Shown here one piece after another: positions 2,811-26,517 of a stretch of 64,000 bases of DNA. Position 1 is the first letter of the stretch. Each line of letters opens with the position of its first letter. The stretch lies in the IMG/VR virus record IMGVR_UViG_3300045988_168563, positions 28,530 through 92,529 of that record. One strand, written 5' to 3'. The notes under the pieces are model-generated. The model was not told the origin of the DNA. It ran no database searches and worked only from the letters and a program-made list of their open reading frames with translations. This stretch comes from a virus. Both the position numbers and the translations under genes were made by a program.

Positions 2811-3419
2811 TTAGAGTTTGATGGTGTCTCTGATGATTTCCAGCATGAGCTTCATATCTATGTAGCTCTCGGTGTTGGCACGTGACTGCTCTAGGAAGCC
2901 ACCATCCTTTGTCTCATCTTCTCGCTTCTTGATCTCCTCAAGGACGTGCGCTGCAGCTTCCTTGATCTGTCTGAGCTGCTTCTTGGGATCTTTAGGAATC
3001 ACAGGCTCGTCCTCTTCTTCCTTGTTGTAGGTGCTCTTGATCTTAGTCATGATGGTATCAGCTACCTTAACCATCAGGCCTGAGTGTAGGTAATTGGCTA
3101 TGTCAAAGATGAAGTCTCGGTCTTCCTCAAGGATACGATCCTGAGCGCAGAAGGATAAAACCTCTGCTACATTGCGAGGATTGACTTGCTTACCTCGGTC
3201 CTTTGGATCCTTCTTGAGTTCCTTGAGCAACTCGCGTCGTGCGTAGTCAAGGGCTTTGAGGAGATCCTCCTTGCCTCCCTTGTCACGGAAGCGGATTACG
3301 TACTTGAGGATACATCCCTCTGCGAAAGAGAGGTTGAGGTTCTCGATGAGATCTAGAGGTTGGTAGTCGTATCCCTTGTAGTGTTCTCCGCCTACCTGGA
3401 TTGATTCTAGCTTATCCAT
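2811..3419 (-). CDS. DUF3310-family protein (paralog 1)
   Basis: N-terminus GGEHYKGYDYQPLDLIENLNLSFAEGCILKYVIRFRDKGGKEDLLKALDYARREL matches the DUF3310 pattern (HY..ie.id.i....f..gn.iKY..R...K...eDL.KA..Y). The C-terminal half is acidic and charged. Confidence 0.6.
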   Translation of the reverse strand: MDKLESIQVGGEHYKGYDYQPLDLIENLNLSFAEGCILKYVIRFRDKGGKEDLLKALDYARRELLKELKKDPKDRGKQVNPRNVAEVLSFCAQDRILEEDRDFIFDIANYLHSGLMVKVADTIMTKIKSTYNKEEEDEPVIPKDPKKQLRQIKEAAAHVLEEIKKREDETKDGGFLEQSRANTESYIDMKLMLEIIRDTIKL

Positions 3420-3646
3420 TTCTTACTTGTTCTTGTTGGTTCGTTAATTTGTTCTTGTACTCTTGCTATATAGGTGCTTGTGTCATCTATATGCTCCCTC
3501 AGATTTCTTAGCTCTTGGATTGATGGGTATCGATTCTCGAACTCACATCGATCTATGAGCATGTCTAGGTTGTGTTCTAGGACAACGAGCGTCGCTGATG
3601 CGTCACTAAGGTTGGCCAGGATCGTTTCTTTTGTACTCTGTTCCAT
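3407..3646 (-). CDS. hypothetical protein
   Basis: 79-aa ORF between the two DUF3310 genes. It overlaps both neighbours (13 nt and 41 nt). No motif recognised. Confidence 0.5.
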   Translation of the reverse strand: MEQSTKETILANLSDASATLVVLEHNLDMLIDRCEFENRYPSIQELRNLREHIDDTSTYIARVQEQINEPTRTSKKWIS

Positions 3647-4043
3647 GTTCGTGTGTAGGATACTCTATCTTCATCTGCATATCGATAAGGTGAGCGAGCT
3701 CTGCCATCTGGTAGTTGCAGATAAGCGTTATTACGATCATGAGGAAGTCCTGAGTTGTCTTGTCGAACTCCTTCTGCGAGACAAAGTCGCAGACCATTCT
3801 GAGATTATCCATCTCCTCAAGAACGATGCCATAGGTTGTCACGCGACTTGGGTAGCTATGACCGAACTCAGCGTAGTTTCTTGCTTTCTTCAGGTCCTGT
3901 AGGCCATTCTTCTTGCGATATCGCACGAGATACTTTAGGATGTTACCCTGGATGAAGTCGAACTTCATATCAGTGATAAACTTGATAGGCTCGTACTGAT
4001 AACCCTTGTAGTGGGCTTCTCCTTGGTACTCTGCTTTTTCCAT
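3606..4043 (-). CDS. DUF3310-family protein (paralog 2)
   Basis: GEAHYKGYQYEPIKFITDMKFDFIQGNILKYLVRYRKKNGLQDLKKARNYAE shows the same motif as 2811..3419. Confidence 0.6.
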   Translation of the reverse strand: MEKAEYQGEAHYKGYQYEPIKFITDMKFDFIQGNILKYLVRYRKKNGLQDLKKARNYAEFGHSYPSRVTTYGIVLEEMDNLRMVCDFVSQKEFDKTTQDFLMIVITLICNYQMAELAHLIDMQMKIEYPTHEHGTEYKRNDPGQP

Positions 4044-6831: not shown

Positions 6832-7034
6832 AATTGTATAACGCATTATAAGTGATGCTCTCTTCCCACCGTGGGTCGGGTAGCGGCGGTCCTTAGAGCG
6901 GACCATACTTGGTGAACCGGAGTCAACCGGCGGTACCTGCAGCTCCCTGCAGCCGGTAGAGACGTGGCGATGCTTCGCACCGGCAATGTAGAGGCCGGGA
7001 GGATGGCGAAGGCGGAGCCACGGACGGCAGAAAG

Positions 7035-7056
7035 CCCCGACAAGGGATATCCCCCG
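7035..7056. repeat. 22-nt motif copy A (CCCCGACAAGGGATATCCCCCG)
   Basis: Identical to copy B. It contains the palindrome GGGATATCCC. Confidence 0.8.
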
Positions 7057-7075
7057 CAAGCGGCAGGGCTACCAA

Positions 7076-7110
7076 CCGGAGGATACCATCCGGAGGTTGC
7101 CAGCCGGAGG
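7076..7110. repeat. three tandem CCGGAGG units with a 14-nt period
   Basis: CCGGAGG occurs at 7076-7082, 7090-7096 and 7104-7110, inside the GC-rich ORF-free element. Confidence 0.7.
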
Positions 7111-7144
7111 GAATCCCAGCCAGGGCGCAGGCGTAAGCCCACAA

Positions 7145-7166
7145 CCCCGACAAGGGATATCCCCCG
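7145..7166. repeat. 22-nt motif copy B (CCCCGACAAGGGATATCCCCCG)
   Basis: Perfect repeat of copy A, 110 nt away and in the same orientation. Confidence 0.8.
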
Positions 7167-7191
7167 ACGTTCGGCCGAAGGCCGCAGGGGA

Positions 7192-7814: not shown

Positions 7815-7840
7815 GGGGGAGGCTTTAGCCCTCCTCCCCC
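7815..7840 (-). terminator. hairpin after gene 7850..8197 (terminator candidate, no U-tract)
   Basis: GGGGGAGG/CCTCCCCC 8-bp stem, 10 nt past the stop codon. No T-run follows on the minus strand. Confidence 0.35.
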
Positions 7841-7849
7841 TTTAGGGCG

Positions 7850-8197
7850 TTAGAATGGGAGGTCGTCAGTCTTTCCAGCGAGGACCTCTTGGTATATGAT
7901 GTGAGCCCGCTGGTCGCGGATAGCATCATCAATGAAGCTACGCAGAGAGCGTCGACGATCTCTCTCACCCTTAGCTGCGTCAAGGACGGTTAGGTAGTCT
8001 TCCTTCTCTGCGTACCGCTCCATAAACTCAGCCATTTCACGGTGAGCCTTAACGAGTTGCATAGCGAAGATGACTTCTCCTTCCTCAGAGATTAGACATA
8101 GGTCAAGCGTAGAGTGCAGCTCATCGAGCATAGCTTCGTCTGAGAGTGCTTCACCGAATTGCTTGAGCGTTTCCTGTGGGATTCTATATGCGTTCAT
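7850..8197 (-). CDS. small helical acidic protein ending in an SSB-tip-like tail (..KTDDLPF)
   Basis: 115-aa ORF. I verified the C-terminal codons 7853-7867 as D-D-L-P-F followed by a stop. There is no OB-fold-like sequence. Confidence 0.65.
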   Translation of the reverse strand: MNAYRIPQETLKQFGEALSDEAMLDELHSTLDLCLISEEGEVIFAMQLVKAHREMAEFMERYAEKEDYLTVLDAAKGERDRRRSLRSFIDDAIRDQRAHIIYQEVLAGKTDDLPF

Positions 8198-8228
8198 AAT
8201 CGTGTTGTTATTATAGGGTTAGTATGGT

Positions 8229-8260
8229 AAAGCCACCTCCCCCGGTGTGGGGAAGGTGAC
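8229..8260 (-). terminator. intrinsic terminator after gene 8269..9129
   Basis: 12-bp stem. The two non-Watson-Crick positions are G.U only when the minus strand is folded. TTT follows. Confidence 0.55.
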
Positions 8261-8268
8261 TGCTGTTA

Positions 8269-9129
8269 TTAGAAGGGGAGACAGTCTGATTCGAAGAGGC
8301 CGGCGTGGAAGTTGTCATCAACTTCGAGGCGCTCCATCTCCTCGTAGTCCTCATCAGTCAGACGCTCACCAGTGTAACCGACCTTGTATTCACCGGTCTC
8401 TTCATCGAAGAACACCTCGAACTCATCACTGATGAAGGCCGACTCTCTCGCCATCTCCTCAGCGGCGATAGCCGCATTCTGAGTTAGCTCCATATCGAGG
8501 TCTAGCCAGTAATCCAGCTGAGCCATCCCACATAGCTTGCCGTAGAGAATACGATACTCTTCCTCAGTGGCAAACATACTAATGCCTGCCATAAGGTCTC
8601 TGTCTCTTGCTTCAGCACTGTCAAGGACGATCTTCTCGACCCATCCCATAGATTCCTTCTCATCAGTGTCATAGTAGAGGCATTCCTCAACACGACTGAA
8701 TGAGTAGGTGCGCTCAGCAAGCTCATCATAGCTGGATATATTAAGGTTAGACAATAGGGTTGACAATTCACAGGTATGCTCCTCCTCAGGAACAGCATAG
8801 CCGATTTCACCACGCTCTTCGGCATCGACGAAAGTATCGTACTTCTGACTGTCGAAGGCTACAAGACCATCAAACAGCGCACGATACTCAATATCTGTGG
8901 CGTGAGCCTTGACGATATCAGCAAGGTAGTCAGCTATGCAACCTTCTGCACAGCGACCTACAGCACGCTTGATATCATCAATATTACCATTGGTGCCATT
9001 ATACTTCAGCCCATCGAGGACGATATTAGCCACAGGAGACCACAAAGCCATAGCAAGCTCAGCATAAGAAGAGCACCAAACGTTAGACAGAAGGACGGAC
9101 GATTCACGGAGGGTCTTGATTGCTTCCAT
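8269..9129 (-). CDS. strongly acidic protein, first gene of the leftward block, tail ..ESDCLPF
   Basis: 286-aa ORF, visibly D/E-rich (DEFEVFFDEETGEYKVGYTGERLTDEDYEEMERLEVDDNF). I verified the C-terminal codons 8272-8286 as D-C-L-P-F followed by a stop. Terminator 8229-8260 follows. Confidence 0.7.
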   Translation of the reverse strand: MEAIKTLRESSVLLSNVWCSSYAELAMALWSPVANIVLDGLKYNGTNGNIDDIKRAVGRCAEGCIADYLADIVKAHATDIEYRALFDGLVAFDSQKYDTFVDAEERGEIGYAVPEEEHTCELSTLLSNLNISSYDELAERTYSFSRVEECLYYDTDEKESMGWVEKIVLDSAEARDRDLMAGISMFATEEEYRILYGKLCGMAQLDYWLDLDMELTQNAAIAAEEMARESAFISDEFEVFFDEETGEYKVGYTGERLTDEDYEEMERLEVDDNFHAGLFESDCLPF

Positions 9130-9287
9130 TGTAGTAAGGTGTTAGGAAGTGAAACAATAAGGATGAACACCACCCTACACAGGATGGCGTACGACAGATA
9201 TAACAAGGCAACAACAGCTAAGTATAGCCATAGCATCACCACAAAACAACACAGCGGAGATAGACGAAAAGGTGGGAAGAGGAATAG

Positions 9288-9297
9288 CCCCCCCCCC
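9288..9297. repeat. C10 homopolymer
   Basis: Ten consecutive C residues in the noncoding region upstream of the first leftward gene. Confidence 0.9.
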
Positions 9298-9598
9298 ACC
9301 TCACGTCTTCCCATTGTAGCCGTCATCACAACAGCTATTCTGGGTGTTGTTGTCTTGTTCACTAGGATTGCCTAGCGCAGGGGTGTGTATTATCTCCTGA
9401 GGAGGGGAGAGTAGGTAATACACCCTTGATGTGGAGCTGGGTTACACCCCTTGCTGAGCTGTGCACTGGACTCTGTGTCCTTGGTGCTTGTGACCTGGCC
9501 AGCGTCCTGCACTGGTGAGGTCTAGGGTGCGAGCTATGACGTGTGTCGCTCGCTATGCTCAGCGGTGGGGTACCCACATCGTTGTGGTACCCATCGCT

Positions 9599-9620
9599 CC
9601 CTGACAAGGGATATTCCCCG
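9599..9620. repeat. 22-nt motif copy C (CCCTGACAAGGGATATTCCCCG)
   Basis: 20 of 22 identical to copies A and B, in the same orientation. Similarity to copy A continues about 25 nt further (..GCA..GGG(C/G)TACCAAC..GGAG). Confidence 0.75.
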
Positions 9621-9702
9621 CACCCGGGGGTACCAACACAGGAGCTGATTGCTGGAGGGGGTCCGAAGCGGGAGCCGTCAGCGCGAGTAAGTTCTGCTGT
9701 AT

Positions 9703-9729
9703 CTAAAAATTTTTTAGGTCATTTTTTTT
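9703..9729. repeat. AT-only palindrome CTAAAAATTTTTTAG plus T8 tract
   Basis: Palindrome at 9703-9717 and T8 at 9722-9729, at the boundary between the GC-rich element and the direct repeats. Confidence 0.8.
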
Positions 9730-9774
9730 GTAGTCCTAAATCGGAGGTCATCAATATGATTGGTATTGGTACTA

Positions 9775-9815
9775 TGGTTGAGGAAGGGATGGTGTATTCT
9801 GGTTGAGGAAGGGAT
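9775..9815. repeat. direct repeat TGGTTGAGGAAGGGAT x2 (25-nt period)
   Basis: Perfect 16-mers at 9775-9790 and 9800-9815. Confidence 0.85.
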
Positions 9816-9902
9816 AGTAGATGCACTTAGTGATCCTGAGTGTGTGCTGTGTAGGTGCCGGACTTAGCTGTGTGTTCGGTGTGGCTGAGGTGGGAATGGT
9901 GT

Positions 9903-9956
9903 GGGTATTTTGGTTGAGGAGGGTGTAGATCATCCTGGGTATTTTGGTTGAGGAGG
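9903..9956. repeat. direct repeat GGGTATTTTGGTTGAGGAGG x2 (34-nt period)
   Basis: Perfect 20-mers at 9903-9922 and 9937-9956. They share the GGTTGAGGAGG/GGTTGAGGAAGG core with the 9775-9815 pair. The second copy supplies the -33 TTTG of cassette 0. Confidence 0.85.
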
Positions 9957-9966
9957 AAGAAGTGTG

Positions 9967-10054
9967 TATCTTTGGTGTGAGAAGTTTCGACATAACTGTT
10001 TGGTATTTATCGTAGGATACGTGTTGCCCGTGATGGGTGGCACGTATTCGTTTT
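9967..10054 (+). ncRNA. candidate small-RNA cassette 0 (promoter to terminator, no ORF)
   Basis: -33 TTTG at 9943-9946 and -7 TATCTTTG at 9967-9974 (20-nt spacer, canonical Bacteroidota arrangement). Terminator hairpin at 10017-10047 (13 bp including 3 G.U, GTGA loop), then TTTT at 10051-10054. Confidence 0.4.
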
Positions 10055-10059
10055 ATGTG

Positions 10060-10167
10060 TACCTTTGTGTTGCTGGGTTTTGAGCTTTTTCCCAGCACAT
10101 CATATTTCCATTGGTTTATAGTTTTACATGGTACGCGTTGTCTGAGAAGATAGCGCGTATCGCTTTT
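10060..10167 (+). ncRNA. candidate small-RNA cassette 1
   Basis: -7 TACCTTTG at 10060-10067. 5' hairpin TGCTGGG/CCCAGCA at 10071-10097. Terminator hairpin at 10132-10159 (12 bp, GAGA loop), then TTTT at 10164-10167. Confidence 0.4.
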
Positions 10168-10172
10168 ATGTA

Positions 10173-10256
10173 TATCTTTGCGGTAGGGGAGTCTTCCCCT
10201 CGTGTGTGCCATTGTTTGTATGCATCATCTCTATATGGGGTGGTGCATACTTCTTT
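10173..10256 (+). ncRNA. candidate small-RNA cassette 2
   Basis: -7 TATCTTTG at 10173-10180. 5' hairpin AGGGGA/TCCCCT at 10185-10200. Terminator hairpin at 10218-10250 (14 bp with G.U pairs), then TTCTTT. Confidence 0.4.
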
Positions 10257-10265
10257 GATATGTAT

Positions 10266-10350
10266 TATCTTTGTGGCGATAGGTAATTAGCTTCATATTG
10301 ATTGTTTAGTTAGGGTTACATGCACTGCTCCTCGGGGTGGTGCATGTTCT
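10266..10350 (+). ncRNA. candidate small-RNA cassette 3
   Basis: -7 TATCTTTG at 10266-10273. AGGTAATTAG motif at 10281-10290. Hairpin at 10318-10347 (12 bp). The T-tract is weak (TCTCGTAT). Confidence 0.35.
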
Positions 10351-10362
10351 CGTATAAAGGTG

Positions 10363-10453
10363 TATCTTTGCACTGTTGAGTCTCCCATACTATTTAGGTT
10401 AGTTGTTAAACTGGGTCTGCGCATCACTCTCATGAGTGGTGCGCATATCTTTT
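10363..10453 (+). ncRNA. candidate small-RNA cassette 4
   Basis: -7 TATCTTTG at 10363-10370. AGGTTAGTTG at 10396-10405. Hairpin at 10418-10445 (12 bp), then TTTT at 10450-10453. Confidence 0.4.
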
Positions 10454-10454
10454 G

Positions 10455-10549
10455 TACCTTTGTGTTGTGGATATAATAGGTTAATTGGCTAATCAAGTGT
10501 AGCTTGATTTTGGTACGCACTGCCTGGGAAGGTGGTGCGTATTGCTTTT
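10455..10549 (+). ncRNA. candidate small-RNA cassette 5
   Basis: -7 TACCTTTG at 10455-10462. AGGTTAATTG at 10478-10487. Small hairpin at 10491-10509. Terminator hairpin at 10514-10541 (11 bp), then TTTT at 10546-10549. Confidence 0.4.
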
Positions 10550-10570
10550 GGGGATTTGAGGAAAGGGTGG

Positions 10571-10690
10571 TATCTTTGCCTTGTAATAAATCTTATCGTT
10601 ATTCTTGGGCTGTGAGGTTAGTCCCACAATTTCCATTTCAAATTTGTCTATCAGCTGTGCGCTACTCGGGAGAGTGGCGCATGGTGTTTT
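10571..10690 (+). ncRNA. candidate small-RNA cassette 6
   Basis: -7 TATCTTTG at 10571-10578. AGGTTAGTCC at 10615-10624. Hairpin at 10658-10681 (10 bp, GGGA loop), then TTTT at 10687-10690. Confidence 0.4.
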
Positions 10691-10780
10691 GGTAGGTTGG
10701 GGATTATATATACCTTTGCGGTGAAGGGTGGCGACCTTTCTGCATCGTATCTTATCTTTTATCTCTGCTCCTCGGGGCTT

Positions 10781-10856
10781 GGAGTGTGATCCAAAGGCTT
10801 GGGCCTGACTTTGTCGGGTGGCTGGCGCCGAGGTGGTTCGATTCCCCCGCACTCTA
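10781..10856 (+). tRNA. non-canonical tRNA-like element 1 (possible aberrant or class II-like tRNA; anticodon unclear)
   Basis: 7-bp acceptor GGAGTGT/GCACTCT (two G.U). T arm GGTGG-TTCGATT-CCCCC (canonical T loop, one U-C mismatch). D arm CCA-AAGGCT-TGG with GG in the loop, and a 12-nt variable arm GGC-TGGC-GCC. The anticodon arm folds as CCTGAC-TTT-GTCGGG or with a 7-nt loop ACTTTGT lacking U33. No CCA is encoded. Confidence 0.3.
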
Positions 10857-10859
10857 CTA

Positions 10860-10916
10860 CTGACTGGTGCTGTAGGCACGCGTGACGACGCTAGGGTTTG
10901 ATTCCCTACGGTCAGG
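10860..10916 (+). ncRNA. tRNA-like minihelix element 2 (acceptor + T arm, truncated core)
   Basis: Perfect 7-bp acceptor CTGACTG/CGGTCAG (one G.U). T arm TAGGG-TTTGATT-CCCTA. Only 25 nt lie between them (two short hairpins, GTGC-TGTAG-GCAC and GCG-TGACGA-CGC), too short for D plus anticodon arms. It lies 3 nt after element 1. Confidence 0.3.
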
Positions 10917-11262
10917 TCTTATCACTGCTCTCTCCTCATGAGGAAGACAGCAACACATTGCGCTTGTAGGGCCCTATCCCCGAAGGCGATGGTCTGCGAC
11001 TGATAGGTCGGTCAAGCGGATAGTGGTGTGAGATGGCGGCGACTCAGTGATCCGTTCGGTACACTTTATTACTCACAAATGGGGGACACCAAAGACCTGC
11101 CTAAGATCCCCTGCCAATACGAAGGTATATCAGGCTACCTTCGAGTAGAGGTCGGACGATGACACCGAGACCTCGCAATGACGCTCACCTTTCCATAGGG
11201 TGGGCGTCGCCTTTTATACGCCACCACAATGTCCTCTTTCCTCAGGCCATATAGTTATGCCT

Positions 11263-18705: not shown

Positions 18706-20832
18706 ATGAGTAACATTTTCGAGTTAAGGGATAAGATGACCTCCCTTACAGGTAGGAGGGATACGGACTTCCCAGAGTCCGCCCCACTCCGAGGAGATGA
18801 GAAGATTCCTATCGTGCAGGGCAACGTCAATGTCCTGGCCACGGTAGCGGACCTCCTCTCTGTGGATCAGTCAACCTACCACTCCGTGCCTCCTAGCGTA
18901 CGGACTATCGAAGCTCTGATGGATTACGTCGACAAGAAGCAGATCCCCTCGTTCAAGACGGCGGGATCTGTCTACTCATACTTCGATATGGACTCAGGTC
19001 TGTGGGAAGTGGTGAGGTACATCGGTGCGTCGACGCGATCTGAGGATGTTAAGAACGTGGGTAACTGGGAATGGCTCTCCTCAGGATCAAGTTCCTTCAA
19101 GGGACTCTTCGGCACCAAGCGTGAGCTTGAGGTAGCTGTCCGTCGTCCAAGGGTAGGCGATCACGCCTTCGTGGGTGAGACGCTCGTCACCTCCACGATG
19201 TACAAGTGTCGTCTTGATGGCTTCTGGGAAGCATCAAGCACTAATCCCTTCCAGGACTTCATCTCCGGGCAGGGATACATCGTTTCTGAACCTACCGAGT
19301 ATTTCGGTGCGCCTATTGAGGAGATCATCGCTGACAGGGCTATCGCCGACAGTGAGGGTCATGTGATCTCACAGACCTATGTCACGAGGTGTATGCTTGA
19401 GGAAGCAGTGCAGTACGCAAAGGGTAACATCGGTATTGAGGATCTCTCCCCTGAGGTCATCGCTTACCTCATTGGCATCCGTACTACTGGCATCCTTCCT
19501 AACAGTGAGGACCTGAAGTTCAACGATAAGAACGAGCTGTCCTTCGCAGACCGCAAGGCTTCCGAGGAAGAGTATCTCGGGTATGGGTATGTCTACATGA
19601 GGAAGAACATAGTCGACAAGACCAACCTCCTCGAGCAGCACATGATCGATAAGGAGAACACCATCTATGATGTTCGCTATACCTACGATCTTGATGGGCA
19701 GACTATCAACATCCCTAGTAACACTGTCCTCGACCTCACCAGCGGTGGTGCTTTCAAGAATGGTAAGATCCGCGTCGGCGAGAACGTTATCATCAAGGTC
19801 TTTCGTATGGACCAGATCTGTGTAGATGTCGAAGGTGATCCCAAGTACATCGATGCAGTGAGGAAGGGTGATAAGGGTGATCCCGGTGAGAGAGGTGCTG
19901 ATGGCGCTCGTGGTCCACAGGGTCTCCCCGGTCGTGATGGCGCAGAAGGTCGTCCTGGTAGGGATGGTATAGATGGAAGGCCCGGTCGTGATGGTCGTGA
20001 TGGTATCAACGGCTCTAACGGCGCTAATGGTAAGGATGGTGCCCCTGGTATCACGCCTAGGTTCAAGGTAGAGGATAATAAGCTCTATGTCTCTTACGAC
20101 AATAAGCATACGTGGGAATGGCTGTACACCTTCACCAGCGGTGGTGGTGTAGTACCAGCCCCAGAGCCTAGCCCTACCCCTGATCCTACGCCTAAGCCTC
20201 CTACACCACAGCCGGATCCTACTCCTAACCCTCCTCAACCAGAACCAGAGCAACCTTCACAGCCCTCTTGCTCGTTCGTCTTCCTCAATCGCGCAGACTA
20301 TAACCTTGCGTCGTATCACGCTGGACTACCAGAGGGGATCTACGCATACCAGGTCTGTGAGGAAGGTAATGGAAAGAGAAAGGACTTTGGCAAGATCCTG
20401 TCTGTAACTAGGATGCCTGAACGCGACAAGCCCAACGAGAAGTGCGGTCCTGAAGAGTTCGTAAGTCCTATCATTCAGGATGAGATTCCTGTCGACTACG
20501 TGGATGTGGTGCAGTTTGTAGAGGACGTTGTCCCCAACGGCACTCGTGGTGTCCTCTCAGTACTCCTGAGGAAGGGCGAGGCACGTAGGTACGATGAGAA
20601 GACTATCGACGCACTCCTCGATAAGTACGCACGCCTAGAGCTCGCTACGTACTCCCTCTGTGAGGTGGTGAGGGATGGTCGCACCACGCTCGTCTACAAG
20701 CGCGTAGGCATCCTCGGTCCTATCAATAGGGATAGCGATGTCCTCTGCACTGTAGTGGATAAGGCTACCATCGTGAGAGAACTGTCAGCAAGAACGTCTA
20801 ACTTCCCATTTGTCAAGTATGTCAAGAATTAG
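18706..20832 (+). CDS. collagen-like repeat fibre protein (head or tail fibre)
   Basis: 20 uninterrupted G-X-Y triplets ([41 protein letters not shown], 19867-20049). A Pro/Thr-rich linker [37 protein letters not shown] (about 20155-20266) follows, then a globular C-terminal domain. Confidence 0.7.
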
Positions 20833-24555: not shown

Positions 24556-26517
24556 ATGAGTTGCGGATGTAACAAGGAGGTATATAAGCGACCTGAGCGT
24601 GAGCCTAAGAAGGTCCACGTCGAACAGCTTTACAGGCGCATAGAGCAAACGCCTTGCTCGGTAGAGAGCAGGAAGCCTGTCTATCCTCAGACCGTCATGC
24701 AGGCTGTCTTTGATGGGTACACCGGCAAGCGTCTTGATCATGTGCTCACCATGGCCAACCATATCTATCTCCCTTGGCGAGGCTGCCTCAAGGATACCCT
24801 TAGGCAGATCCCTCGTGGCGTTCGTCGTCGCGGGCTCGTCATCACTATGGTAGATGGTGCAGGTCAGGTTATTACGAGGCAGTACACCGGCTCCTGCAGC
24901 GATGGCTGTAAGGAGATCACCAATCCTAAGCACTGGTCTCCCATCGGCGCAAACAAGGATACGTTCTACAAGCCCTACAACATCAGGATGCAGGGTCAGA
25001 ACCTCATCACTGAGTTCGTCGACGACCGCGGAAAGCTCCACGCTCTTCAGACGAAGATCGATGGGCTCTTCAGGTACGAGGTGAAGACCAGGGCATTCCT
25101 TGGCGCACCTGAGATGGCTGAGGAAGGAGTGATCTACCTTGTGCCTAACGATGATGCTCCCGGCACGTTCCGTGAGTTCATGAAGGTTAGCTACATGCGT
25201 AATGGTCAGCTCGTCCACAAGCTCGAGCAGTTTGGTAGTGCCTCAGGTATCTGCCAGCGACAGGGTGCTCCCGACAGGAGCCTCAAGAGCGTGGTCTATG
25301 AGAACGGTGAGCTTGTCTTCCGTGTAGGCCTTAGCCCTGAGATTGATACTGACGGATCCCTTGATGAGGTACTGCGTGTACCTTTTGCTGTTGAGAACGG
25401 CAATCTCGAAGCTCTGGAACGTAGGGTGAAGGTCCTTGAGAACAAGGAGGACAAGGATACGATCTTCAATCCTTCTTCTCTCCTCAAGACCATTGAGGAC
25501 CTGACTAACGAGTTGAAGGCTGTCAAGGCTAAGCAGGCAGAGCTTGAGCGCAAGCAGGATGTCTATGCCGTCTCTGGCGAGTGGGTCGATGACGACACCA
25601 TCAAGATCCAGAACAACAATGGTACCAGCTTCCTCATCTCCAAGAATGTCGTGCAGGAATGGCGTGAGCTTCCCGCTAAGACGACCTTCGATGCTCCTCT
25701 GCCTGTAGAATGGGACACAGCTACCGATCCTACGCTCTACGCTGATGAGTCAACTGTAGTGCGCACCGCTGTCCTCGGCAAGCGTGTCGTGGTTGAGGAA
25801 GAGCTGTACCGCAATGGTCAGCCTACCGGTACCAAGCGTACGAAGAGTGATGTCCATACCCCAGGTGTTGCAGAGATGCGCAGGCGTGGTGCTAAGAAGC
25901 GTCCTGTTGTCACGACGCAGACGATCGTAGAGAAGGAACCTATCCAGCCAGGACCTAATGGACCTGACCAGTACGACAACAACGCCTTCGAGGATGTCAT
26001 CGTCACTATCCAGCCTGTAGTCGGTGAGCGTCAGCGCAATGTCACCTACACGCTCATCGATGGTGTACGACAGGCTAATCCTCAGTATGGCGAGTGGACT
26101 GTCACCAAGCCAGCTAAGCCCGGTTACAGGGTCGTAGGTAGGAAGAAGAGGCCTGTAACTGAGACCTACACTACCTACCTCGGAAAGTACCCTCACAGGA
26201 GCGGTATCGGTGAGGAGGGGCACCCTATCACTGCAGCTGACATCAAGGCTCTGACGGCTACTGTCGCTTCCTCACCTGCAGAGGTGTTCAAGCAGATCAC
26301 TGTAGTGTCTAACGAGAACTCAAAGTTCTCTTATGCATATCCCAAGAGTCTGGGTGCTGTCACCAAGATCATCGATGGTTCGAATGATGATATCAGGGAG
26401 AACTTCGATGAGACCACGGTAAGCATTGATGGTGTTGACTACCTCGTCTACACCATCGCCGCACCATTCGGCTCCACGAGAAAGCGTCAAGAAATCCCAT
26501 TCACTTTTGTTAAGTAA
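24556..26517 (+). CDS. fibre-like structural protein with coiled coil and two internal repeats
   Basis: 653 aa. It has a coiled segment (LERRVKVLENKEDKD..ELKAVKAKQAELERKQ) and two ~70-aa repeats, each ending G(A/R)KKRPV (about 25750-26160). Confidence 0.65.
   Translation: MSCGCNKEVYKRPEREPKKVHVEQLYRRIEQTPCSVESRKPVYPQTVMQAVFDGYTGKRLDHVLTMANHIYLPWRGCLKDTLRQIPRGVRRRGLVITMVDGAGQVITRQYTGSCSDGCKEITNPKHWSPIGANKDTFYKPYNIRMQGQNLITEFVDDRGKLHALQTKIDGLFRYEVKTRAFLGAPEMAEEGVIYLVPNDDAPGTFREFMKVSYMRNGQLVHKLEQFGSASGICQRQGAPDRSLKSVVYENGELVFRVGLSPEIDTDGSLDEVLRVPFAVENGNLEALERRVKVLENKEDKDTIFNPSSLLKTIEDLTNELKAVKAKQAELERKQDVYAVSGEWVDDDTIKIQNNNGTSFLISKNVVQEWRELPAKTTFDAPLPVEWDTATDPTLYADESTVVRTAVLGKRVVVEEELYRNGQPTGTKRTKSDVHTPGVAEMRRRGAKKRPVVTTQTIVEKEPIQPGPNGPDQYDNNAFEDVIVTIQPVVGERQRNVTYTLIDGVRQANPQYGEWTVTKPAKPGYRVVGRKKRPVTETYTTYLGKYPHRSGIGEEGHPITAADIKALTATVASSPAEVFKQITVVSNENSKFSYAYPKSLGAVTKIIDGSNDDIRENFDETTVSIDGVDYLVYTIAAPFGSTRKRQEIPFTFVK

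Follow-up and report, generated by a model that had tools for sequence, protein, structure and literature searches.

Two adjacent genes of an uncultured, crAss-like phage of the human oral cavity encode mutually unrelated helical proteins with the same kind of C-terminal end, D-x-[L/I]-P-F, and similar ends occur on three replication proteins encoded in sister genomes. We put the probability at about one half that this end is a docking peptide of the SSB-Ct type, D-x-[L/I]-P-F-COOH, displayed on at least five phage proteins, and that the two early ones act as competitors or adaptors. In this proposal we infer the binding by the tail, the identity of the receptor, the early timing (from gene position only) and the competitor or adaptor role. 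The peptide is probably a common address label, suited to plugging into the SSB interaction network or to blocking it.

Two helical proteins at the head of a leftward gene block

Within the window, the whole stretch of 64,000 nucleotides that we analysed, the first credible genes of a leftward block encode a 286-aa and a 115-aa protein, in that order (Table 1). Upstream of both lie about 2.1 kb of hairpin-rich intergenic DNA without a convincing gene. The functions of the early proteins of crAss-like phages are almost all unknown. The initial annotation had described two consecutive leftward proteins with D-x-L-P-F ends at this place, and the reading frames and tails agree with that description when checked codon by codon. 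The C-terminal stretch of the 286-aa protein reads ...HAGLFESDCLPF. In both genes the stop codon stands immediately 3' of TTC, so that Phe is the terminal residue and occupies the free carboxylate position. The Pro codon of the motif differs between the two, CCC in the 286-aa gene and CCA in the 115-aa gene. The terminator-like hairpin behind the 286-aa gene folds as RNA with a dG of -24.4 kcal/mol (z = -4.5) and is kept in sister loci; the L-P-F codons of this gene fall outside its predicted stem.

Table 1. Positions in the window of the two genes, their parts and the hairpins behind them
Feature	Position	Strand	Description	Basis
Gene 1	8269..9129	-	286 aa, acidic, all-helical, ends SDCLPF	ORF and translation
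Helical domain copy 1 (286-aa protein)	8863..9105	-	residues 9-89	BLASTP self-comparison and family alignment
Helical domain copy 2 (286-aa protein)	8533..8769	-	residues about 121-199	BLASTP self-comparison, alignment, AF2
Hypervariable cassette in the 286-aa gene	8364..9079	-		blastn of the window against sister genomes
Acidic C-terminal segment (286-aa protein)	8272..8445	-	residues 229-286; low-confidence, probably disordered	
D-C-L-P-F tail (286-aa protein)	8272..8286	-	GAC TGT CTC CCC TTC, then TAA TAA	
Terminator-like hairpin after gene 1	8231..8261	-	13-bp G+C-rich stem, then UUUA	
Gene 2	7850..8197	-	115 aa, helical, ends ...VLAGKTDDLPF	ORF
D-D-L-P-F tail (115-aa protein)	7853..7867	-	GAC GAC CTC CCA TTC, then TAA	
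Hairpin after gene 2	7815..7840	-	8-bp G+C stem; dG -21.3 kcal/mol, z = -2.0	RNA fold

Both proteins had also been described as helical and acidic and as lacking an OB fold, a view that our models bear out. Their AF2 models are all-helical, their net charges are -43 (286 aa) and -10 (115 aa), and neither matches an SSB in Pfam or PHROG; the helical models and the lack of an SSB match rule out that either is an OB-fold SSB. The strong negative charge of the 286-aa protein further speaks against binding of ssDNA. This protein is internally repetitive, its N-terminal and C-terminal parts aligning in BLASTP at 35% identity over 82 aa (E = 8e-5), and the short members of its family (138-174 aa) contain one copy of the helical domain only. 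AF2 predicts helices alone in the domains, with pLDDT of 70-87, and one short low-confidence hairpin near the tail. In residues 229-286 pLDDT is mostly below 55, and below 50 in residues 229-241, 248-258 and 271-286; the final 60 residues of the protein hold 20 D+E against 4 K+R. The 115-aa protein is modelled, with low to moderate confidence, as a long helical hairpin (residues 38-64 and 68-106) from which the nine-residue end AGKTDDLPF is free.

Neither protein has a family match in Pfam or PHROGs, and in Foldseek comparisons with PDB and BFVD no hit for either reached E <= 0.001. Megablast and tblastn searches with the region and both proteins found no match among 50,697 phage records, and an exhaustive profile search over 1.84 billion representatives recovered the same clade and fragments only, with no distant relatives. 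Paralogy of the two proteins was rejected as well (BLASTP E = 1.9; hhalign probability 0.15%). Because the two families are unrelated, their common tail is not a simple heritage of gene duplication, and it must have been acquired twice or transferred. We also considered a beta-clamp-binding motif, for which the consensus is of the Q-L-[S/D]-L-F type with an L-x-L-F hydrophobic pattern, and rejected it: the tails K-T-D-D-L-P-F and E-S-D-C-L-P-F contain no Gln and place Pro at a position of the pattern.

Conservation of the tail in a hypervariable gene

We found 53 homologs of the 286-aa protein, all from Crassvirales and from a single clade, and 10 homologs of the 115-aa protein, most of them at 83-100% identity. 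The initial annotation had tied the idea of a functional tail to its persistence in orthologs, and the terminal [L/I]PF is indeed kept in nearly all homologs. Across 53 representatives of the 286-aa family, the final Phe is present in 53/53, Leu in 52/53, and Pro and the Asp at position -4 in 49/53 each, counts whose power is limited in that the homologs are drawn from one narrow clade with flanking DNA 80-93% identical. The exceptions, a few representatives, end in LHF, LLF or RPF. The acidic run of this family is fixed as Asp at -4 only, with Ala at -5, Glu at -6 and a variable position -3, where eight different residues occur among the 53 representatives; the corresponding run in the 115-aa family is D-D. 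Three unrelated pre-tail linkers converge on LPF (..NFHASLYEADxLPF, ..IAEENHYPADDLPF and ..QSPVRPKDPHSLPF). A pattern of constant D, L, P and F around a free -3 fits a residue-specific constraint on the protein and fits a DNA or RNA element poorly.

The 286-aa gene behaves as a hypervariable cassette: one or two helical domains lie between a constant N-terminus and a constant tail. DNA homology across the cassette is undetectable in several sister genomes, while the flanks are 80-93% identical (blastn against four sister genomes), and protein identity within the family drops to 25-40% with both termini constant. Nearby genes of the block encode an ArdA-like protein and a protein with the crAss001_48/'Sequestin' domain, and the cassette together with these neighbors fits a host-interaction or counter-defence neighborhood.

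In the cassette variants, homology restarts just upstream of, or inside, the last 6-30 codons. This is one of the observations that would be expected if the shared end had no function in the protein and were a by-product of conservation at the DNA level, such as a recombination boundary or a terminator region, or a matter of chance. In the same direction, CTC CCC TTC TAA TAA and the downstream hairpin are invariant in those 286-aa family loci in which the DNA was read, and CTCCCC resembles the sequence of a hairpin arm. Given this invariant end, the 286-aa family alone cannot separate conservation of the protein from conservation of the DNA or of a recombination boundary. The 115-aa orthologs vary at this place: their Leu codon is CTC, CTA or ATC, the last giving Ile and the end DDIPF, and their Asp codon is GAC or GAT. 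Each change of the Leu codon is therefore either synonymous or an L-to-I exchange, which is the natural alternation of the SSB tip. An RNA hairpin as the constraint behind the tail was rejected on this variation of the Leu codon, on the position of the L-P-F codons outside the predicted stem and on the hypervariable -3 codon amid fixed D, L, P and F. The same three observations count against a DNA-level by-product, as do the different Pro codons of the two genes and the presence of a like end on three further, unlinked genes.

Chance alone accounts poorly for the frequency of such ends. In a composite proteome of about 92 proteins, four have PF at the end where 0.12 are expected from composition (Poisson P = 7.5e-6); the corresponding count in crAss001 is 0/97. 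Within the window, three of the 545 ORFs of at least 30 aa end in PF, namely our two genes and an antisense ORF within a gene of 2598 aa. In the extended leftward block, the tail is missing from all 33 other genes. Taking these points together, we regard a shared end without function in the protein as very improbable.

Related tails on replication proteins

In five sister genomes, similar tails are found on a gp82-like protein (DDLPFN), a gp81-like protein (EPAPF) and the primase (DQ[IV]PF). The genes there run in the order Sak4-like, gp82-like (183 aa), gp81-like (352 aa) and primase (ending DQIPF), and the two proteins of the window are encoded well upstream of the Sak4-like gene, where the same block begins. 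While the gp81-like protein and the primase end at Phe, the acidic gp82-like protein has one residue beyond it, which is incompatible with a strict need for a free Phe carboxylate. Across the order Crassvirales, the tails of gp81-like proteins carry D-x-P-F and x-P-W motifs, also in phages with their own polymerase, and a primase ending in DNMPF occurs in another crAss lineage. We found no recognizable OB-fold SSB in the gp82-like or gp81-like proteins by Pfam, PHROG and PDB sequence searches. For the 352-aa gp81-like protein, searches of PDB by sequence and by profile, and of Pfam, returned noise only, with a weak RPA-OB match in 1 of 32 members, so its label as a putative SSB refers to its position after Sak4 and its tail architecture only.

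In bacterial genome maintenance, the SSB tip serves as the central docking signal, and it is being studied as an antibacterial target. In Bacteroidota, the phylum of the hosts of Crassvirales and likely that of the host here, SSBs end in DLPF or DDLPF (PMC3991886). The mimicry of the SSB tip suggested by the initial annotation is in part supported by the match with the Bacteroidota DLPF, but the feature is not peculiar to the two adjacent genes, as that annotation had it, since three replication proteins share it. Titration of host partners, which it also raised, is plausible as one sub-model.

A search of the clade for a DNA polymerase found none that was recognizable. Three giant proteins without matches stand at positions corresponding to the RNAP-like gp47, gp49 and gp50 of crAss001, and in crAss001 PolA occupies the syntenic slot; crAss-like phages without a polymerase have been recorded before (PMC7886860). 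By these searches the phage seems to encode no DNA polymerase, in which case its replisome has to rely on enzymes of the host.

The receptor of the tail could be a host SSB-interacting protein or the phage's Sak4 or helicase, so that it could be phage-encoded instead of, or besides, host-encoded. If the receptor were encoded by the phage alone, most plausibly as the Sak4-like annealase or the DnaB-like helicase, the early proteins would be accessory factors or regulators of phage replication and recombination and not decoys for the host. The genes for both candidates lie directly upstream of the three tailed replication genes. A precedent is offered by phage HK620, whose Sak4 binds SSB-coated ssDNA only via the last six residues, NDYPPF, of the cognate SSB (PMC5928155), and genes for Sak4 and SSB co-evolve as functional pairs (PMC5499656). 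The order-wide P-F and P-W ends of gp81-like proteins, polymerase-encoding phages included, also fit a conserved phage receptor. However, the early tails are closer to the SSB tip of the host phylum (DLPF) than to the EPAPF of the phage's own gp81-like protein, and the hypervariability of the 286-aa family is unexpected if its contacts are conserved phage proteins only. We consider a purely phage-internal receptor rather unlikely, and it is in any case compatible with the SSB-Ct-type docking peptide that we favor, as one type of pocket could serve both.

Phages commonly make early proteins that are short-lived, and the tail might instead be a protease tag, LPF-COOH, through which the first early proteins are degraded quickly and removed on schedule. 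The C-terminal tripeptide LPF is present in both window proteins. In Streptococcus mutans, the terminal LPF of SsbA is reported to be sufficient for degradation by ClpXP, and GFP becomes degradable when LPF is added, with recognition limited to some S. mutans strains and absent in the other bacteria tested there (PMC5143411). The likely host phylum here is Bacteroidota. A degradation tag would also leave the conserved Asp at -4 unexplained. Nor would it account for the same kind of end on the primase and on the putative SSB, proteins that replication requires from beginning to end, and we judge it improbable.

A proposed docking role and its relation to known systems

In the SSB-Ct-type docking model, the Phe at the end, with its free carboxylate, would insert into a pocket of the SSB-tip type together with the Pro, the Leu or Ile and the Asp. 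The 286-aa and 115-aa proteins, owing to their position at the head of the block, would be made first, and both would be competitors or adaptors at tip-binding pockets. They may fill the SSB-tip sites of host nucleases, helicases, and primosome or polymerase components, or they may tether the ligands of the variable helical domains to host genome-maintenance enzymes. Later, the gp82-like protein, the putative gp81-like SSB and the primase would use the same sites, leading to assembly of the replisome.

A bolder version of this model, which we offer tentatively, is that the phage, infecting oral bacteria and lacking a DNA polymerase, has detached the host-type SSB tip and copied it onto a primase, an SSB-like protein and an acidic partner to hijack the replication and repair machinery of the host. 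It would further have placed the tip on two early helical decoys or adaptors that shut down or redirect the host SSB interactome, including nucleases, helicases, the restart primosome and possibly defence enzymes, and the swappable domains and the variable -3 position would record an arms race. If true, this would define a new class of phage protein for host takeover or counter-defence. A literature search returned no report of non-SSB phage proteins bearing an SSB tip in the full-text collection searched.

If the tails are functional, phages would be seen to detach the tip from SSB as a modular label that serves both the building of a replisome and early interference. The first early genes of crAss-like phages would gain a testable function and with it a first functional handle, and the replication of a polymerase-less crAss-like phage would have a rationale. 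The proteins would also be natural high-copy mimics of the tip, in which the variable position shows how the specificity of the tip pocket can be tuned.

In being very acidic (-43), fast-evolving and early by position, the 286-aa protein recalls the DNA mimics Ocr and ArdA. Neither window protein resembles these in sequence or fold, with no Pfam ArdA match and no Foldseek hit at E <= 0.001, and no DNA mimic is known to bear an SSB tip.

In phage T7, the SSB gp2.5 and the helicase-primase gp4 have acidic, Phe-ending C-terminal tails that compete for one site on the T7 DNA polymerase. These tails are without the L-P-F signature, and no early non-replisome proteins of T7 are known to carry the tail. 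As in T7, where the interplay of SSB and polymerase has been described (PMC12339929), an SSB-like protein and a primase of one phage share an acidic Phe-ending tail. The difference is that T7 encodes the receptor polymerase, whereas the crAss-like clade studied here has no recognizable polymerase.

The Sak4 systems of HK620 and phi11, in which Sak4 is paired with a cognate phage SSB, are likewise similar in arrangement, in that a Sak4-like gene immediately precedes genes for proteins with an SSB-tip-like end. They differ in that the proteins following Sak4 here, gp82-like and gp81-like, are not recognizable OB-fold SSBs.

Phage N4, which injects an RNAP of its own, shows that SSB-type proteins and their C-termini can be interaction devices outside replication: its virion RNAP has host SSB as a cofactor, and host RNAP is activated at late promoters by the C-terminus of N4SSB (PMC4496689). 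By analogy, the early tip proteins might be transcription cofactors or regulators that act on the injected virion RNAP or on host RNAP, supplying or competing with an SSB-like cofactor and switching between phases of transcription. The crAss-like virion RNAP uses single-stranded or denatured DNA as template and drives early genes (bioRxiv 10.1101/2020.03.07.982082), and the two genes adjoin the hairpin-rich 2.1-kb intergenic region. Against this, a direct interaction between purified EcoSSB and N4 vRNAP was reportedly not detectable (PMC4496689), the virion RNAPs of crAss and N4 are unrelated enzymes, and neither of our sequences points to RNAP binding. The two phages have no sequence relationship, a role of this kind in a crAss-like phage is conjectural, and we give it little credence.

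A further likeness is to the SSB-Ct itself (..D-D-D-[I/L]-P-F). Like it, the tails in the window stand at the extreme C-terminus, present [L/I]-P-F after Asp and follow a flexible acidic segment, and the alternation of L and I recurs in the phage orthologs. The DDLPF of the 115-aa protein is identical to tips reported for SSBs of Bacteroidota, the likely host phylum (PMC3991886). Two differences set the phage tip apart: the 286-aa family has one Asp only, with position -3 free, and the tip is borne by all-helical non-OB proteins and a primase instead of by an ssDNA-binding tetramer.

Two adjacent genes with a common C-terminal tail

Counting credible genes only, the leftward block begins with genes 1 and 2, which adjoin a 2.1-kb intergenic region and encode proteins of 286 and 115 aa that both end in D-x-L-P-F. 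This confirms what an initial annotation had reported of these adjacent ORFs and their ends. A strong hairpin lies 3' of each gene. Only 3 of the 545 window ORFs of at least 30 aa end in PF (genes 1 and 2 and one antisense ORF inside a giant gene), and the tail is found in 0/33 other genes of the extended leftward block. The tails of the two products are far from chance.

Neither protein has relatives in Pfam, PHROG, PDB or BFVD. The 286-aa protein (net charge -43) contains a helical domain in two tandem copies, residues 9-89 and ~121-199 (35% identity, E = 8e-5); between the second copy and the tail lies an acidic segment of low model confidence. The AF2 model of the protein consists of helices only, with pLDDT of 70-87 in the domains and below 50 at 229-241, 248-258 and 271-286, within the last 58 residues. 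For the 115-aa protein AF2 gives, with low to moderate confidence, a long helical hairpin from which the last 9 residues extend freely. Because the predicted models are helical, we rejected an OB-fold SSB identity for both, as the initial annotation had anticipated. Homology between the two families was likewise rejected (BLASTP E = 1.9; hhalign probability 0.15%), and the tail is their only common feature.

Features of the window, the replication module and related loci. Locations are window positions unless prefixed; L002 and L016 are sister-genome loci, L023 is crAss001 and L025 is another crAss lineage. Numbers 1-10 give gene order in the module.
Feature	Location	Strand	C-terminus, match or counterpart
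Gene 1, ORF, 286 aa	8269-9129	- (leftward)	...HAGLFESDCLPF
-3 codon of the 286-aa tail	8281-8283
Gene 2, ORF, 115 aa	7850-8197	- (leftward)	...VLAGKTDDLPF
Paralogous neighbour genes	2811-3419; 3606-4043	-	DUF3310 domain at start of each
360-nt G+C-rich gap	6832-7191	-
2.1-kb intergenic region	9130-11228
Tandem TGGTTGAGGARG repeats	9758-9956
146-aa ORF	9772-10212	-
Six long hairpins (12-16 bp)	10015, 10129, 10218, 10418, 10654, 11179	+
708-aa protein	18706-20832		collagen-like tail-fibre repeat
653-aa protein	24556-26517	+	G5 domain (PF07501, E = 9e-11)
Giant protein, 2598 aa	44441-52237	+	position matches crAss001 gp47
Giant protein, 1589 aa	52303-57072	-	position matches crAss001 gp49
Giant protein, 2269 aa	57072-63881	-	position matches crAss001 gp50
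1, SF2 helicase
2, DnaB-like helicase
3, Sak4-like annealase			phrog_2872, E = 1e-46
4, gp82-like acidic protein, 183 aa	L016:8353-11032 (4-6, consecutive)		...SSSIDDLPFN
5, gp81-like protein, 352 aa	L016:8353-11032 (4-6, consecutive)		...GDGNPFDEPAPF (EPAPF)
6, DnaG-type primase	L016:8353-11032 (4-6, consecutive)		...VQGDQ[I/V]PF
7, Holliday-junction resolvase
8, exonuclease
9, ArdA-like protein	L016:13774-14370		PF07275, E = 2e-10
10, thymidylate-synthase-like protein
crAss001_48 domain protein	L002:19855-20304; L016:639-1088		PF21825; contig annotation 'Sequestin'
Primase, another crAss lineage	L025:10911-11942		..DNMPF
crAss001 gp49	L023:3433-7482		..YIEDQIPFFKQ

Conservation of the tail in a hypervariable gene

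A profile search run exhaustively over 1.84 billion representatives returned nothing of the 286-aa family outside the clade. Within the family, a near-constant N-terminus (MEAIKNLRESS..) and C-terminus enclose a middle whose one or two domains belong to several divergent types; identity there runs from 96% down to ~25%, and family members are 138 to 378 aa long. Among sister genomes the flanks of gene 1 share 80-93% DNA identity while the gene body is without homology, which is regained only in the last 6-30 codons; in these alignments gene 1 behaves as a replaceable cassette.

Conservation of the terminal LPF in orthologs, the check suggested with the initial annotation, was borne out in the 53 cluster representatives of the 286-aa family: F occupies position 0 in 53/53, P position -1 in 49/53, L position -2 in 52/53 and D position -4 in 49/53, with any of 8 residues at -3. 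This LPF end is common to three unrelated pre-tail linkers. The residues seen at -3 in the family are C, D, A, S, Y, R, N and H, with V in one sister locus, always flanked by invariant Asp and L-P-F; where the DNA was read, the codons are TGT, TCT and GTT. Diversifying selection acting on the specificity of the tip may lie behind this hypervariability. The 115-aa family consists mostly of close homologs (83-100% identity among near-full-length members), and CTC, CTA and ATC all occur as its Leu codon, ATC giving DDIPF, an E. coli-type tip. Some sister genomes have no 115-aa gene, and there the sole tailed early protein is a single-domain member of the 286-aa family.

Could the tail be kept by chance or at the DNA level? 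Wherever the DNA of a 286-aa family locus was read, it was invariant over the final four codons, the double stop and the hairpin downstream, so this family alone would be compatible with DNA-level conservation. We argue against both. A DNA-level constraint is at odds with three features: the hairpin stem does not include the tail codons, fixed codons flank the hypervariable one at -3, and genes 1 and 2 use different Pro codons.

The replication module and its genomic setting

By its sequence matches the window is assigned to a Crassvirales genome: nr homologs carry the name 'Crassvirales sp.', terminase, portal and major head protein match crAss-type PHROGs, and muzzle and cargo proteins match crAss Pfam families. 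The major head protein has at most ~44% identity to any catalogued phage, and identical contigs come from human oral metagenomes. A G5 domain occurs in the structural block, and a collagen-like repeat in a 708-aa protein. The DUF3310 domain is linked in PHROGs to nucleotide-kinase-associated families. The three giant proteins have zero Pfam, PHROG or PDB-sequence matches; their positional counterparts in crAss001 are annotated as RNA-polymerase-like. The end of one counterpart, gp49, resembles the clade's primase tail GDQIPF, which may be coincidence.

Sister genomes were followed beyond the window's left end, one of them encoding the 286-aa protein at 97% identity, and in these the leftward same-strand block runs on into a replication module. 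Its Sak4-like gene lies directly upstream of three tailed genes (gp82-like, gp81-like and primase), whose tails are kept in every gene copy read in five sister genomes; the gp81-like protein also has internal D-x-N-P-F repeats. Of the ~92 proteins in a composite proteome, 4 have a PF end where 0.12 would be expected (P = 7.5e-6), and a fifth ends in PFN. The initial annotation had proposed SSB-tip mimicry by the two early genes, an interpretation that is supported in part: the non-SSB helical proteins with conserved tip-like ends stand, but the tail is not confined to them, being also carried by three replication proteins.

The module is syntenic with crAss001 gp85-gp80, where gp82 ends in ..ADEMPFKD and gp81 in ..TPWG; the crAss001 primase has no such end, and PF ends occur in 0/97 of its proteins. 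Across Crassvirales, gp81-like C-terminal tails carry one or two [D/E]-x-P-F and x-P-W motifs, and a primase of another crAss lineage ends in DNMPF, from which we infer that replication modules throughout the order carry the acidic-x-P-F/W peptide as a linear motif. The present clade has sharpened it to exact C-terminal [L/I/V/A]-P-F ends and has put it also on two early proteins. The leftward block further encodes a 'Sequestin'-annotated protein, which together with the ArdA-like gene would fit a host-interaction neighbourhood.

Contacts through the SSB tip are a known way of reaching replisome components. The clade (the window and sister loci L002, L015 and L016) has no recognisable DNA polymerase, ribonucleotide reductase, UDG or dUTPase, so a host polymerase would have to be recruited. 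All four are present in crAss001, with PolA in the syntenic slot between exonuclease and thymidylate synthase. CrAss-like phages that lack a polymerase have been described (PMC7886860).

The G+C-rich gap that separates the 193-aa gene from the 165-aa gene has a predicted fold of -166 kcal/mol (z = -3.0 against shuffles), 90-94% identity across sister genomes with a nearly invariant 3' half, compensatory changes in 3/104 predicted pairs, two copies of the motif GGGGGATATCCCTTGTCGGGG and no Rfam match; it thus resembles a structured RNA. No convincing gene lies in the 2.1 kb that separate the divergent gene blocks. This region has 10 hairpin-plus-T-run sites versus 3.2 +/- 1.7 in shuffles, and a TTATGTRTAYCTTTG-type repeat follows several of its long hairpins. 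Possible roles for these elements are as non-coding RNA units, promoters or an origin. The long intergenic RNAs of phi14:2 are highly transcribed. The basic, low-complexity 146-aa ORF in this repeat- and hairpin-rich region, annotated as a gene in public contigs, is probably not a real gene.

Candidate receptors and known systems

Cloning primers for the F. psychrophilum and P. torquis SSBs decode to ..ENDLPF and ..DDLPF, and Bacteroidota SSBs end in DLPF (PMC3991886), so the 115-aa tail is an SSB tip of the probable host phylum. The end of the 115-aa protein agrees fully with the sequence criteria for an SSB C-terminal tip (SSB-Ct), and those of the 286-aa family agree in part. We give a probability of about one half to a reading in which five phage proteins share an SSB-tip-type docking peptide: the two early proteins would present it on flexible ends and either compete for tip-binding pockets or serve as adaptors there, and the tip-bearing replication proteins would later occupy the same pockets.

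The receptors could be host SSB-interacting proteins, as suggested by three points: the tip agrees exactly with that of the host phylum, the phage has no recognisable polymerase, and gene 1 is hypervariable. Instead or as well, the phage's own Sak4-like protein or helicase could serve, a possibility to which gene order, the order-wide motif and the HK620 precedent point. HK620 Sak4 docks on SSB-coated ssDNA only via the six C-terminal residues of its SSB partner (PMC5928155), and Sak4-SSB pairs are functional units (PMC5499656), which makes the Sak4-like protein a candidate phage-encoded receptor. Besides the chance or DNA-level conservation argued against above, rivals to the docking reading are an LPF degron of the ClpXP type, whose recognition is strain-restricted according to PMC5143411, and a role in transcription that would be analogous to that in N4 (PMC4496689).

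Red-beta, RecT and Sak4 are phage proteins that bind SSB tips; no non-SSB phage protein bearing such a tip was found in the literature searched. The docking mode proposed here would resemble the bacterial SSB-Ct network and also T7, in which SSB and helicase-primase share an acidic Phe-ended tail, whereas the 286-aa and 115-aa proteins differ from SSBs in having no OB fold in their predicted models.
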